Of a DNA stretch of 64,000 nucleotides, positions 4,171-7,937 are shown one piece after another. Position 1 is the stretch's first letter. Each line of letters begins with the position of its first letter. A model generated the notes under the pieces. It did not search any database, was not told the origin of the DNA, and was given only the letters and a program-made list of their open reading frames with translations. The translations under genes and the position numbers were made by a program. The stretch is from a virus: the IMG/VR virus record IMGVR_UViG_3300045988_151351, positions 1 to 64,000 of that record; one strand, given 5' to 3'.

Positions 4171-4632
4171 ATGGCTTCTCAAATTAAAAAAAATGATTTA
4201 AATAATTGGTATGAGCAATTAAATGCCATTCGAACTGAATTCAATTTAACTACATTAAGTTATTCAAGCATTCCTAGTGGAAAGCGTGTTACAAGTACTG
4301 ATTATACTAATTATTTAGATTTGTTAAATACTTTAAAAACAAATACATATGGACAATATGCTTTAGATTGGTCTAGTAGTACGACAGAAACTCCTAAAAT
4401 TAATAATAAAATTAATGAAACTACAAAAAATGATATAGATAATACTATTGCAGCATTACAGAATTTATGTGCAAGAGAAGTAAGATCTGTAGGCGGACTA
4501 AGTAGCGATTTTTCAGTTATTGCAACCGGAAAAACAGAAACTGATTTTACAAATACTACTTTCTTTAATCGTACAAATAGTGTTTGTAAAACAAATGGTG
4601 TTGCTTCTGATTTTTCTAAATTCACTAATTAA
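4171..4632 (+). CDS. S/T/N-rich small protein with Cys and repeated xDF motifs (candidate rSAM substrate/precursor)
   Basis: Intact ORF, no TAG; C-terminal SSDFS...TETDFT...SVCKTNGVASDFSKF. Confidence 0.5.
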   Translation: MASQIKKNDLNNWYEQLNAIRTEFNLTTLSYSSIPSGKRVTSTDYTNYLDLLNTLKTNTYGQYALDWSSSTTETPKINNKINETTKNDIDNTIAALQNLCAREVRSVGGLSSDFSVIATGKTETDFTNTTFFNRTNSVCKTNGVASDFSKFTN

Positions 4633-4644
4633 AGGAGAAATGGT

Positions 4645-5019
4645 ATGAGCGAAAAAAATTTAACAAAAATTGTTGATGATGATAAAAAAAATACATATAC
4701 TTTATCATCATTATTAAATTTATTAAATTCTGGAGATATACTAAAAAAAAGTCGAATTATATCTGATCCATCTATTTCTTTAATGGCTAGCAATAGTACT
4801 TTTGGTGGTAAAACTTCAAATGGAACAGATCACCCTTTTAGCTCTGTATATAATGTTTCTAAAACAAATAACTCTACTAATAGCGTTCATAGCGATTTTA
4901 CTAGAGACAGTACTGTTTGTCCTGATTTTAATAAATGTAATACTAACTCTACTAACTCTACTTGTGGTGATTTTGCTAGATTTACTCAAGATAGTAATAC
5001 CTGTTCTAGAAGAGATTAG
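4645..5019 (+). CDS. paralogous S/T/N-rich Cys-containing small protein with xDF repeats (candidate rSAM substrate/precursor)
   Basis: HSDFTRDSTVCPDFNKCNTNSTNSTCGDFARF; GGAG RBS; immediately upstream of rSAM genes. Confidence 0.5.
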   Translation: MSEKNLTKIVDDDKKNTYTLSSLLNLLNSGDILKKSRIISDPSISLMASNSTFGGKTSNGTDHPFSSVYNVSKTNNSTNSVHSDFTRDSTVCPDFNKCNTNSTNSTCGDFARFTQDSNTCSRRD

Positions 5020-5137
5020 GAAGTAGTAGATGGGCCAGTGTATAATGATAGTAATTATACAAATTCAGTTACTACAAATACAAATATATTTTTTGGTTTT
5101 GCAGTAAGAAAATAAAAGGAGAATAGCAACAAGACAA

Positions 5138-6517
5138 ATGAAAGAAAATAGAATGACTTTAGTATTATATCCTAATATTACTTGTAATTTAAATTGTACT
5201 TATTGTTATATAGATAAAAGTCCTGCTTTATTACATATTGATAAAATATTTGAAGAAAGTTTTAAAAATGATTATTATTTTGAATTTTCAAAAGAAATAT
5301 TTTTAAAAAATGTTTTAAAAGAAATATAGTTTTGGGGCGGAGAACCTTCTATGGGTTTGCATAGAGTATATCATTTAATACCTAAATTTATAGAATATTA
5401 TCCTAATTTAAATACTTTTATGACTTCTACTAATTTTACCATTCCCAATTGGTTTGATGAATTTTATGGATTAACAAATATTTTAAAAAATTATCCAGAA
5501 CGTAAATTTATTATTGATTTACAATTATCTTTAGATGGACCAAAATATATTAATGATAAAAATCGTGGCGAAGGCGTAACAGATTTATTTTTAAATAATT
5601 ATCAAAAATTAATGAATAATATAGATGAAAATTTACCAGACAATGTAGAATTACATATACACTTTAAACCAACTCATACTTCAGAAACAATAAGTATGTT
5701 ATAGAATAAAGAAAAAATTATTGAATATTTTTAGTTTTATGATAATTTAATTTATTAGGCTAATTGTCATAAAATTGCAGATATTAGCGCCAGTCCAACA
5801 GTACCTAATACAGCAGTTCCAGCTCCACACACTAAATAGGATGGAATTTTATTCGCTAATTATTGTAAGTTATGTCGAGAAATTGAAGAAGAAAATAAAG
5901 TAAAAAAATATTTTAAATGTTATAAGTATATAACTTCATTTGTACCAAGATATTATTGGGAAGATTAGCCTTTAGATACTGATGTAGCTAAAATCAAAAA
6001 TAATAATATGATAGGAAATTGTGGAAATTGCGGATCTGGTAGAAGCGTAGTTGGTCTATTACCTGAAAATAAAATTTCAGTATGTCATAGTGGTTTTACT
6101 GATTTATTAGAAGAATATAAACAATATGCTGAGAAAAATCGAGATTGGAAAGAACGTAGTATTTTAAATTCTGGCTTTACTGGAGAATCTTAGGTACGTT
6201 CTAATGCTATGTCATTAGAAGAATATGCTCAATATGAACGAATGATTGATTGTTTTTATAATCCAGATTTAACGTGTAAAAAAAGTAATTTAGTTTATCA
6301 AATTCGTTTATATGCTAAAATGGGGTAGATTGATAAAAAATATTTAGATGAACAAGAAGCTATTGATGCTGCTTGTTATCTTTTGGATTCAACATCTTAT
6401 TGCATGAGAGATAATATGAATGTAACTACATCTTTATGTTTAAATCCTCCTGGATTAATTAAATTATTATTAAATGGAGCAAAGGAGTATTGTGATGGAA
6501 CCTATCAAAGACAATAA
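5138..6517 (+). CDS. radical SAM enzyme with C-terminal SPASM-like Cys clusters (anSME/peptide-maturase-like), ~6 in-frame TAG
   Basis: CNLNCTYC (CX3CX2C), FWGGEP motif, C-terminal CGNCGSG...C...C; track ORFs 5138, 5351, 6008 all frame 2, contiguous when TAG read through; ends TAA 6515. Confidence 0.75.
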
Positions 6518-7937
6518 TAATATATAGTATTAGAAAGAACAAGATGAGATTTTAAGCAATATTTTATATTCAACTATTTATCCAAATTTATAGGTTTTAA
6601 ATAAAGATGCAGCTTTAAAATCTTAGCCCGGAGTTACTTTAGAGTTAGATATTACTTCTACTTGTGATAAAAAATGTACTTATTGTTATTTATAGAAATA
6701 TGCAGATGGAATTTACCCAAAAGAATATCGTTCTCCTGACACTATTATTAATAATTTAAAATTATTATTTGATCATTTTATTGAACATAATATTGTTTCA
6801 TTAAGATGCATTGATCTTTTTAGTGGAGAAATTTGGGGTTATCCGTTAGGGAATAGCATTTTAGATACTATTTATAGTTATTTGGATAAAATTTCTATGC
6901 CATTTATTATGATTCCTTCAAATTGTTCTTTTGTTGATGATGATAATAGATTAAATATAATAAAATAGTATATTAAAAAATTTAAATTAAAAAATTGTAG
7001 ATTATGTTTTTCAGCTTCATATGATGGTTTAATTATAGATGCTGAAACTAGACCTTTTTCAGATAAACATAGAGCTTATAAAGAAGCTACAGAATATGCA
7101 GACAAATTATTTAATTTTTGTGATGAATTTGGTTATGCTTTTCATCCTATGGTAGATGCTTATACTATTGACAAATGGGTAGAAAATTTTAAATGGTGGG
7201 ATGAACAATGTAAAAAATATCATTTCAACTGTATAAGAGATGTTATGTATTTAGAAGTTCGTAATCCTAATAGTTGGAATGATACTACAATTTCTCAATA
7301 CTTAGATTTTTTGAAGGTATTTAAAAATAAATTAAAAACTTTGTATTCTTCTCATATAGATTATGTTAAAGATTTATTTAATACACTCCCCTCTGATAAA
7401 TCTGTTATATCTCAAATGTCTTATATACCTTTTTGTTTAAGAGAGAGTAATCGTAGCAGTTGCGCCATTACTTAGAATTTTTCTATCCGTTTAGGAGATT
7501 TAGCAATTATTCCTTGTCATAGAACAGCTTATGAAAAACTCCTTTATGGAAGATATAGAGTTGAAAATAATAAAATTATTGGTATATAGGCTTTAAATTT
7601 TACTCCTATGATTCCTTTCTTAATTATTGGGCAAGGAGCATATATTAAATGTGATACTTGTTGCATTAATAAGAATTGTATAAAATGTTGCCATGGAGCA
7701 AATTATGAAGACCATAAAGAAATATTATATCCAATAGAATCAGTATGTGAATTAGAAACTGTAAAATTTATGTATGTTATGGAATCAATGATTAAAGATA
7801 TGCAGTCTTTAAATGATGAAGATATAAAAATGATATATGTAAATGCCGCGGAATTAATAAATACATATAATAAATTAAAGGTAGAGAAAAAGGAGATATA
7901 TGAAAAATGGGTACCGATCGTGCTTAGCAAGATATGA
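6495..7937 (+). CDS. second radical SAM/SPASM enzyme, several in-frame TAG
   Basis: TCDKKCTYCY (CX3CX2C), C-terminal CDTCCINKNCIKCCHG; AAAGGAG RBS 6481; pieces 7149 and 7608 same frame; ends TGA 7935-7937. Confidence 0.7.

Follow-up and report, generated by a model that had tools for sequence, protein, structure and literature searches.

Radical S-adenosylmethionine (rSAM) maturases that carry the SPASM motif (CX9-15GX4C - gap - CX2CX5CX3C - gap - C) bind two auxiliary clusters through it, and several maturases form thioethers: PapB makes the Cys-Asp links of a ranthipeptide, the SCIFF maturase CteB makes Cys-Thr links, and QhpD connects Cys with Asp or Glu within the QhpC subunit, being a precedent for the cross-linking of a protein that is left intact as a structural subunit. 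Systems in which repeat peptides are paired with rSAM enzymes were reportedly described in silico by Haft and Basu (CXXX-repeat TIGR04115/04116, Cys-every-fifth CefA/CefB, His-Xaa-Ser HxsA with the paired rSAMs HxsB/HxsC, and Gly-rich-repeat GrrA/GrrM), and these were defined in cellular genomes. Triceptide systems, with enzymes such as ChlB, XncB/XyeB, OscB/GrrM, MscB/FxsB, and YhhB, have precursors that carry repeated aromatic-X-X motifs. In triceptides the enzymes that form cyclophanes of three residues (3-CyFEs) join Phe, Trp, Tyr, or His at position i to the C-beta of the i+2 residue, which can be Asn, Arg, Asp, Ser, or Ala (PMC11002830); ChlB acts in triceptide biosynthesis as a multiple cyclophane synthase, and minviopeptin uses Y-S-K and F-T-K motifs (PMC12912966). 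The present analysis concerns two small proteins (A and B) followed by two rSAM enzymes (rSAM1 and rSAM2) in the IMG/VR virus record IMGVR_UViG_3300045988_151351, of which the first 64,000 nucleotides (the window) were analysed; the window is part of a ~201-kb human-gut phage contig, ERZ919498 k127_103588, and starts at base 5831 of locus L001. These genes probably represent a phage-encoded maturation module that resembles those of peptides that are made by ribosomes and then modified post-translationally (RiPPs) and cross-links a hypervariable late protein.

The small protein A (153 aa; 4171..4632, + strand) consists of a helical N-terminal domain (N-domain; residues 1 to ~108) and a disordered tail rich in Ser, Thr, Asn, Asp, and Phe with three xDF motifs. 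After a gap of 12 nt it is followed by the small protein B (4645..5115, + strand), which comprises 156 aa with TAG as a sense codon, does not have the N-domain, and is built of a core rich in Cys and xDF and a conserved tail (IFFGFAVRK). The first-pass annotation of this DNA, made from the letters alone, had placed A correctly, as well as B up to the TAG codon at 5017-5019, where 124 aa are completed; read-through adds 32 residues. This TAG is invariant in five strains and separates the core from the conserved 32-residue tail, which is kept in strain variants (156-aa forms) and matches the C-terminus of the homologue in locus L008 (LFSGFAVKT). As long as a suppressor is not yet expressed, translation of B would stop after 124 aa.

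In L008, a related 196-kb phage, and also in L010, the gene next upstream of the rSAM1 homologue encodes one 301-aa protein. Residues 9-142 of the L008 protein are matched by A (E=1e-19), and residues 223-300, tail included, by B. Because both align to separate parts of this fused protein, A and B are two halves of one protein type and belong to one family of 150-500-aa phage proteins, the putative substrate being split into two genes in the window. The earlier description of A and B as paralogues was given up in favour of such a split, since the one pairwise comparison of A with B gave E=0.024 and B did not match the N-domain profile (hhalign probability 0.1). A second claim, that the small open reading frames (ORFs) contain no TAG unlike their neighbours, did not hold either: in the three small genes TAG makes up 1/9 of Gln codons versus 44% in neighbouring genes, which is a marginal depletion (P ~0.04, binomial estimate), and TAG avoidance as a trait of small genes was rejected, as B reads through its TAG and the fused homologue has five in-frame TAGs.

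The repeated xDF motifs are above chance, as had been suspected, with three DF dipeptides in each of A and B (shuffle P 0.001-0.005), and in the C-terminal third of A each Asp precedes Phe. B contains four Cys and two C-x-D-F motifs (C-P-D-F and C-G-D-F), A contains C100 and C139, and the aromatic-X-X motifs of the two proteins are FSK, FTR, FNK, FAR, FTN, and FSV. Annotated homologues of A and B were found neither by Pfam, NCBIfam, and PHROG scans nor by sequence search; a word-indexed search with A returned solely members at least 92% identical, and a profile gave 10 matches.

The N-domain (~105 aa) was defined by alignment of the proteins upstream of rSAM1 in twelve loci and is characterized by a near-invariant Trp13 and an invariant Cys100 at the domain end. 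In the AlphaFold2 (AF2) model of A, residues 1-105 are predicted to be helical with a predicted local distance difference test score (pLDDT) of 80-94, and residues 109-148 to be disordered (pLDDT <50). An exhaustive profile search with a hidden Markov model of the N-domain identified at least 131 cluster representatives at 50% identity, in nearly all of which the domain is N-terminal, most proteins having 120-474 aa. No relative of the N-domain was found in Pfam, among PDB sequences (profile search, chance-level matches), or among PDB folds (E>4), and a fold search in BFVD matched uncharacterised gut-phage proteins only.

The region after the N-domain is extremely variable, with 14-15% each of Thr, Asn, and Ser, 10% Gly, 6% Asp, 6% Tyr, 5% Cys, 3% Phe, and 3% His over the family. 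Its repeats are clade-specific and include S-N-G-T-x pentapeptides (often NGTC), NF(S/T), NSTYSDTC, Y/C-rich units, and, in this phage, xDF; in the clade of L015, L017, and L020 many of the S-N-G-T-C pentapeptide units put a Cys at each fifth position. N-x-S/T sequons are abundant in the cores, some clades have few aromatic residues there, and in most family members the C-terminus is formed by one or the other of two short conserved tails. Among 113 members, Cys makes up a median of 4.2% of the C-region, and 8/113 do not contain Cys. The C-x-D motif is enriched 1.9-fold over the family, and enrichments are at most ~2-fold apart from the clade-specific repeats; in the 113 cores no sequence context of F, Y, W, H, or C was universal, and a strong i+2 preference was not seen. 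A conserved folded N-domain followed by a disordered hypervariable remainder is a precursor-like architecture.

Variability is also seen at the level of strains, in a patch of the B core at 4888..5012 (+ strand; about residues 82-123). Comparison of five strains, 97-100% identical over 3701-6600, revealed 33 variable alignment columns (indels included) in 4901-5000 versus 0-5 in each other 100-nt bin of that region, and the patch includes 6-nt and 9-nt indels. A diversity-generating retroelement was considered as the cause and rejected as far as the window shows, because neither a second copy of 4860-5030 (template repeat) nor a reverse-transcriptase-like ORF was found in it.

The order repeat protein, rSAM1, rSAM2 is observed in the window, in L006, and in L008/L010-L021. 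In 17 loci, 14 of them recovered through rSAM1 and three through the substrate N-domain, a repeat protein lies directly upstream of the rSAM1 homologue without exception (17/17), and an rSAM2 homologue comes next wherever the contig continues. The module loci belong to TAG-recoded, TGA-recoded, and standard-code phages with 27-59% GC, and the identity of rSAM1 goes down to 24%. In the reverse test, where N-domain proteins were picked regardless of rSAM genes, all three were followed by an rSAM1 homologue (41-48% identity) and, in both contigs long enough, by an rSAM2 homologue (35-39% identity). Other genes of the same block, encoding an aldo/keto reductase (AKR)-ferredoxin, ~290-aa paralogues, the 197-aa protein p197, and a family 2 glycosyltransferase (GT2), are kept in subsets of the loci only. 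The 23-nt overlap of rSAM1 and rSAM2, together with the short gap between A and B, is compatible with translational coupling. Taken together these data support the view that A and B are real and conserved proteins with an obligate link to the two rSAM genes. Of the precursor and maturase arrangement suggested in the first-pass annotation, the linkage of conserved proteins to peptide-maturase-like rSAM enzymes stands; two paralogous short precursors do not, and no RiPP recognition element (RRE) was detected. The situation named there as contrary to this idea, unconserved low-complexity ORFs next to rSAM enzymes of cofactor type, was checked and is not what the locus contains.

The weakest match, L022, is a different system built on a CXXX-repeat protein and was excluded from the locus count. 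It encodes at 2680-4170 a 496-aa phage protein in which C-x-x-x repeats (CETGCEVSCQDSC...) take up nearly the whole length, with (HSD)n at the end, after which there are three rSAM genes, one of them near the PapB family (281 bits versus a cut-off of 340). More RiPP-type enzymes are encoded beside the module in other loci, namely YcaO, rSAM-GT2 fusions, and a TIGR04115 rSAM (L008 980-2767 and 1-216; L021 2385-4517; L014 4298-5584). The extra rSAM of L014 reached 399 bits against the cut-off of 350 for TIGR04115, the CXXX-repeat maturase family, and the presence of a known repeat-peptide rSAM system in related phages speaks for the proposed module.

The first of the two enzymes, rSAM1 (459 aa; 5138..6517, + strand; eight TAG codons), carries the motif C16-x3-C20-x2-C23 (CNLNCTYC) and has no N-terminal extension. 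The CX3CX2C signature of both enzymes and their overlap by 23 nt had been read correctly from the sequence, and in rSAM1 the three Cys are invariant in 65 homologues. In total 584 homologues of rSAM1 were collected, many on contigs of 100-330 kb. The family has extra conserved Cys at C298, C316, and C422, and nearly always at C243; the homologue alignment demonstrated that the SPASM 7-Cys motif is absent. Since these three to four extra Cys are enough for one auxiliary cluster, a single, twitch-domain-like cluster is likely in rSAM1. The C-terminal SPASM-type clusters proposed earlier for both enzymes were thus confirmed in the canonical 7-Cys form for rSAM2 and reduced to C298, C316, C422, and nearly always C243 for rSAM1.

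The alignment and the AF2 model of rSAM1 were made with the 99%-identical P0047 as the first sequence. The model (pLDDT 89) is predicted to have alternating beta and alpha elements and is similar to rSAM structures; in the PDB its closest fold is ChlB with bound substrate leader (9gm3; Foldseek E=3.6e-7, probability 1.0, TM 0.47/0.56), followed by EpeE (peptide epimerase), MoaA, and SpeY (twitch dehydrogenase). PDB sequence searches with rSAM1 and rSAM2 gave chance-level matches only. In the NCBIfam scan 32-33 of 33 rSAM1 homologues were matched by the PapB, DynA, anaerobic sulfatase-maturating enzyme (anSME), YhhB, viperin family, and twitch-domain family N_Twi_rSAM models; the best E-values were 3.5e-7 to 7e-14, covered the rSAM core only, and stayed far below cut-off. 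The PapB model matched 33/33 homologues, with 34.8 bits for rSAM1 of the window versus a cut-off of 340, and GggB was also among the models matched by family members. The cyclophane models (XyeB, YhhB, GrrM/OscB, FxsB, and AmcB) gave best E-values of 1e-5 to 1.5e-9, the window protein reaching ~20 bits versus 310-450. The match of rSAM1 to phrog_1802 had E=2.8e-15.

The second enzyme, rSAM2 (480 aa; 6495..7937, + strand; eight TAG codons), has ~55 aa before its cluster motif CDKKCTYC and a full 7-Cys SPASM motif of the form C-x10-G-x6-C ... C-x2-C-x5-C-x3-C ... C. Both C64/C68/C71 and the SPASM residues C330, C348, C393, C396, C402, C406, and C425 are invariant in 10 aligned homologues, and relatedness of rSAM2 to rSAM1 is confined to the rSAM core. 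The NCBIfam models matched by these 10 homologues were QhpD (9/10), PapB (8/10, best 3e-12), the SCIFF maturase (6/10), and SPASM TIGR04085 (6/10), so that the leading matches other than the generic SPASM model are thioether-forming enzymes; all were below cut-off, and rSAM2 of the window scored 16.8 bits with QhpD, whose cut-off is 453. Pfam Radical_SAM and Fer4_12 matches of both enzymes were weak. Standard-code gene calling fragments rSAM1 as well as rSAM2 and truncates B.

As judged by sequence profiles and predicted folds, the best matches of the two rSAM enzymes are the peptide-modifying enzymes ChlB, EpeE, PapB, and QhpD, and their likeness is only to SPASM/twitch enzymes with peptide or protein substrates, including the SCIFF maturase, DynA, and YhhB. 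The family scan that the first-pass annotation had proposed left both enzymes below the cut-off of every named NCBIfam family, and because of this their membership in the sactipeptide, ranthipeptide, or triceptide systems is not established. With triceptide systems the module shares ChlB as the best structural match of rSAM1, weak matches of the rSAM1 family to the YhhB, XyeB, GrrM/OscB, and AmcB models, repeats located behind a leader, and F-S-K, F-T-R, F-N-K, F-A-R, and F-T-N motifs in the cores of the window. It differs in that rSAM1 has 12% identity to ChlB at a TM of ~0.5 and keeps only three to four extra Cys, in that the substrate N-domain is a folded unit of 105 aa and the cores may run to several hundred residues, with aromatics sparse in some clades, and in that the module is phage-encoded beside tail fibres and includes a second rSAM. 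The likeness to thioether SPASM maturases is based on rSAM2, in which QhpD, PapB, and SCIFF are the most often matched models and the 7-Cys SPASM is complete, as well as on the B core with its four Cys and two C-x-D-F motifs; against it stand scores of 10-35 bits versus cut-offs of 340-453, the failure to detect an RRE, and substrates that are hypervariable repeats rather than a fixed small protein and in 8/113 cases lack Cys. Among the proteins of the window and the loci that were scanned or listed, none was seen to be encoded by an amine dehydrogenase gene.

The systems of Haft and Basu are similar in the position of a tandem-repeat substrate beside one or two SPASM rSAMs. The HxsB ("paired rSAM"), CefB, and CXXX-repeat models were weakly matched, Cys at every fifth residue is characteristic of the L015/L017/L020 pentapeptides, and a true TIGR04115 member lies beside the module in L014; however, the rSAMs of the window fall in none of these families, the N-domain is absent from Pfam and NCBIfam, and full-length homologues of the module were found on phage-like contigs only. 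A classical RiPP cassette also has a substrate gene adjoining the maturase gene and a conserved leader-like part with a variable core, but here a folded domain of 105 aa stands in the place of the "leader", the "core" may be longer than 300 aa, and the module has no processing or export genes, has tail-fibre neighbours, and uses the phage's own code. In the literature searched no description of this phage module was found, which may be partly explained by the above-mentioned fragmentation of the rSAM genes and truncation of B in standard-code gene calling.

The structure of the genes, their conservation and strict synteny, the cofactor motifs, the folds, and the local hypervariability are observations; on their basis it may be proposed that the rSAM enzymes act on A and B, by what chemistry they do so, and which biological role results. 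The folded N-domain would serve as a recognition or "leader" handle, and the disordered S/T/N/G repeat region with Cys, Asp, and aromatic residues as the "core", followed by the short conserved C-terminal tail; A would thus provide the N-domain and a short core, and B a core and the tail. Both rSAM enzymes would abstract hydrogen from residues of the core and form cross-links within the molecule. Chemistry of the cyclophane type and of the Cys-Asp thioether type is plausible because the cores of the window have F-x-K/R/N as well as C-P-D-F and C-G-D-F, and the most likely products would be Cys-to-Asp/Asn/Thr thioethers (rSAM2) and/or aromatic-to-C-beta cyclophanes on F-x-K/R/N (rSAM1). The Fe-S AKR and other Fe-S proteins of the block might supply electrons or perform further modifications. 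Since the genes have TAG sense codons and follow the tail-fibre genes, and no protease or exporter is nearby, the product would most likely be a late, full-length, cross-linked protein, virion- or fibre-associated or released at lysis, and not a small exported peptide. For the closest conceptual precedent of such in-protein cross-linking one may look, by analogy, to QhpD acting on QhpC.

A more specific form of this proposal is put forward only tentatively, namely that large phages of anaerobic Bacillota staple a hypervariable tail-fibre-associated protein by their own rSAM enzymes through thioether and/or cyclophane bonds. The stapling would occur in the reducing cytoplasm, where disulfides cannot form, and could yield a protease-resistant, fast-diversifying surface structure, for example, a receptor-binding element or a decoy.

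Several facts weigh against a cross-linking module. Neither rSAM is at any curated cut-off and the match to ChlB is moderate (TM ~0.5, 12% identity); no RRE or PqqD was found in the rSAMs or the small neighbouring proteins; 8/113 C-regions are without Cys, aromatics are few in some clades, and the enrichments are modest. As no residue context is common to all cores, a single shared chemistry is not evident, and B, having no N-domain, is without this putative recognition handle. Room is also left for a glycosylation pathway by the nearby GT2 and AKR genes and the many N-x-S/T sequons, which, besides a released peptide, is one of the two main rivals. The locus would then be a glycosylation or sugar-tailoring island, where the repeat protein is a heavily glycosylated fibre or decoration, the rSAMs, the Fe-S AKR, and the GT2 produce and attach an unusual sugar, and the rSAM enzymes act on carbohydrate like BtrN and SpeY. 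The GT2 (5e-22) and AKR (6e-22) genes do belong to the same low-GC block, L008 and L021 have rSAM-GT2 fusions close to the module, sequons are abundant in the cores, and rSAM1, with its one likely auxiliary cluster, has SpeY and MoaA among its fold matches; still, GT2 and AKR are missing from most loci that keep the triad, whose constant gene order and overlapping frames connect the rSAMs with the protein, the enzymes matched best modify peptides (ChlB, EpeE, PapB, and QhpD), and the full SPASM of rSAM2 is typical of peptide and protein maturases, which makes this explanation quite improbable. Somewhat better placed, though unlikely too, is a classical released RiPP (bacteriocin, toxin, or signal), from which a host protease removes the N-domain leader and whose core is freed at lysis to hit competitors or the host. 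The conserved leader-like domain with a hypervariable core and the peptide-maturase neighbourhood of the enzymes agree with it, and two rSAMs with two substrate ORFs recall two-component sactibiotics, an example being thuricin CD (PMC12093266). At the same time neither a protease or exporter nor an immunity gene or RRE lies in the block, the length of the cores is great (family proteins of up to 474 aa), the conserved C-terminal tail suggests that the full-length protein matters, and the genes use recoded TAG at a constant place directly after the tail-fibre genes, because of which cross-linking within a late protein is at least as likely as a released RiPP.

The remaining two explanations have far less in their favour. 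The idea, raised in the first-pass annotation as an alternative, that anSME-like maturases produce formylglycine or another single-residue oxidation on a protein was rejected as very improbable: the anSME model is matched by 33/33 rSAM1 family members (best 1.6e-10) and rSAM1, like anSME, has no N-terminal extension for an RRE, but its score is 27.9 bits versus the TIGR03942 cut-off of 349, anSME is not among the top fold matches, direct reading of A and B revealed no (C/S)-x-(P/A)-x-R sulfatase motif, and no sulfatase gene was seen among the window and locus proteins scanned or listed. The least probable and strongly disfavoured case is that A and B have no functional link to the rSAMs, being low-complexity filler or fast-evolving fibre fragments beside unrelated enzymes. 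The cores are indeed compositionally biased and disordered in the AF2 model, and A and B are without annotated homologues; this is countered by a confidently folded N-domain present in 131 clusters at 50% identity, by the adjacency in 17/17 loci of very divergent phages with three genetic codes, and by the non-random xDF motifs.

Two new rSAM subfamilies and a new substrate domain without Pfam or PDB relatives are defined by this analysis, and the hypervariable repeat cores represent a natural library usable for enzyme discovery. If the link is functional, RiPP-type radical chemistry would not be limited to cellular secondary metabolism and would count among the late functions conserved in a broad group of large phages from the gut and other habitats. 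The position of the patch beside the tail fibres leads to a testable idea, namely a role of covalently cross-linked proteins in recognizing the host or in stabilizing the virion in the gut, and stapling, if true, would be the first case of a viral structural protein modified post-translationally by radical-SAM chemistry of the RiPP type.

The module is situated, as the first-pass annotation had stated, inside a recoded block. ORF coverage of the + strand in 1-12500 doubled when TAG was counted as sense and full-length genes were restored; of the 2746 codons of the neighbouring genes 46 are TAG, so that TAG accounts for 44% of the Gln codons there, and TAG codons are unevenly spread over the genes of the window (0 to 14 per gene). 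The block at 1600-11330 has a very low GC content (18-26%) and every gene on the + strand, in the order GT2, QueG/RDH-like Fe-S protein, s108, A, B, rSAM1, rSAM2, the 197-aa protein, AKR-ferredoxin, and two ~295-aa paralogues. Directly upstream of the block the contig has several tail-fibre genes with repeated 'ATVATSGDYNDL..KPTIP' motifs and C-termini 'LLWIDT...W.AVPVAYT'. After the block six tRNA genes (Thr-TGT, Leu-TAA, Gly-TCC, Lys-TTT, Ala-TGC, and Cys-GCA) are located at 11403-13540, and no TAG suppressor tRNA is among the tRNA genes of the window. In the related contig L006 a release-factor homologue (PCRF/RF-1) is encoded a few kb upstream of its module.

In GTDB genomes full-length module homologues were found solely on contigs of metagenome-assembled genomes (MAGs) assigned to Bacillota, some of 150-175 kb. 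A 355-aa protein at 13605-14672 (+ strand) with two S-layer-homology (SLH) domains (4.6e-20) and, by eye, a signal-peptide-like N-terminus points to a host with an S-layer or an SLH-anchoring cell wall. Both the Bacillota MAG assignments and this SLH-domain protein fit phages of Clostridia-like hosts. No relatives were found among INPHARED phages by blastn and tblastn, and single-sequence scans of IMG/VR with rSAM1 and with A gave no match, unlike the alignment-based scan, which succeeded.

Upstream of A, the ORF s108 (3758..4084, + strand; 108 aa, no TAG) belongs to a cluster of 18 near-identical members and has no Pfam, NCBIfam, PHROG, or PqqD/RRE match; an ORF of 101-119 aa stands before the repeat protein in L006, L008/L010, L011, L012, L021, L043, and L044. 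It is preceded by a promoter-like TTGACA-17-TATAAT element at 3687..3715 (+ strand), the only site in 1400-11600 that agrees with the sigma-70 consensus at 12/12 positions; taken as a whole, promoter-like matches in this AT-rich region are not more numerous than by chance. Between s108 and A an intrinsic-terminator-like stem-loop with a U-run (4089..4139, + strand) has an RNA fold of -17.9 kcal/mol (z = -5.5), and 0/200 shuffles were as stable. At the upstream end of the block, the GT2 glycosyltransferase (1643-2788, + strand; Glycos_transf_2 5e-22) is not kept with the triad and is common to the window and L021 only by BLAST clustering, and the next gene (2775-3629, + strand) encodes the QueG/RDH-like Fe-S protein with weak Fer4, QueG, and RDH matches.

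Downstream of rSAM2, p197 (7907..8500, + strand; 197 aa) has no family match; its BLAST family is present in the window, L006, and L008, and proteins of 170-213 aa occupy the same place in L011, L012, L013, L014, and L017. The RRE search proposed in the first-pass annotation gave no RRE/PqqD match in rSAM1, rSAM2, s108-like, or p197-like proteins even at E<=1, RREs being divergent. The following gene, an aldo/keto reductase fused to a 2x[4Fe-4S] ferredoxin domain (8484..9503, + strand; Pfam Aldo_ket_red 6e-22 and Fer4 families), occurs in the window, L006, L008, L012, and L014. The block is closed by a pair of 290-aa and 299-aa paralogues (9567-10439 and 10432-11331, + strand; E=6e-13) with three invariant Cys. 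This ~290-aa family is present in the window, L008 (three copies; 2781-3659 and 11310-13021), L014, and L021 (4495-5634), mostly as adjacent paralogue pairs near the rSAM module and once adjoining a YcaO gene. Its profile gave only chance-level matches to PDB sequences, and a faint Peptidase_U32 match (E=0.06) was seen in one of eight members, which is the only trace of a peptidase or transporter family in any gene of 1610-11331; by sequence these paralogues could be UbiU/UbiV-like Fe-S enzymes.

Elsewhere in the window a third rSAM (53380-54330, + strand; 316 aa, CNNHCPYC, six TAG; Radical_SAM 3e-13) lies among replication genes, apart from the cassette. Other cargo includes an RNA-ligase-like protein, NAMPT/NAPRTase (NAD salvage), SPFH/flotillin, GyrB-like, and GyrA proteins (25252-26628, 29818-31332, 36201-37589, and 41734-46877). 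A vault-like 828-aa protein is encoded at 17831-20317 (+ strand; MVP_shoulder 1.8e-19, Vault_3 9e-8), which is unusual in a phage of bacteria, and is adjoined by a DUF2828/DUF7788/vWA protein at 15996-17528 (+ strand).

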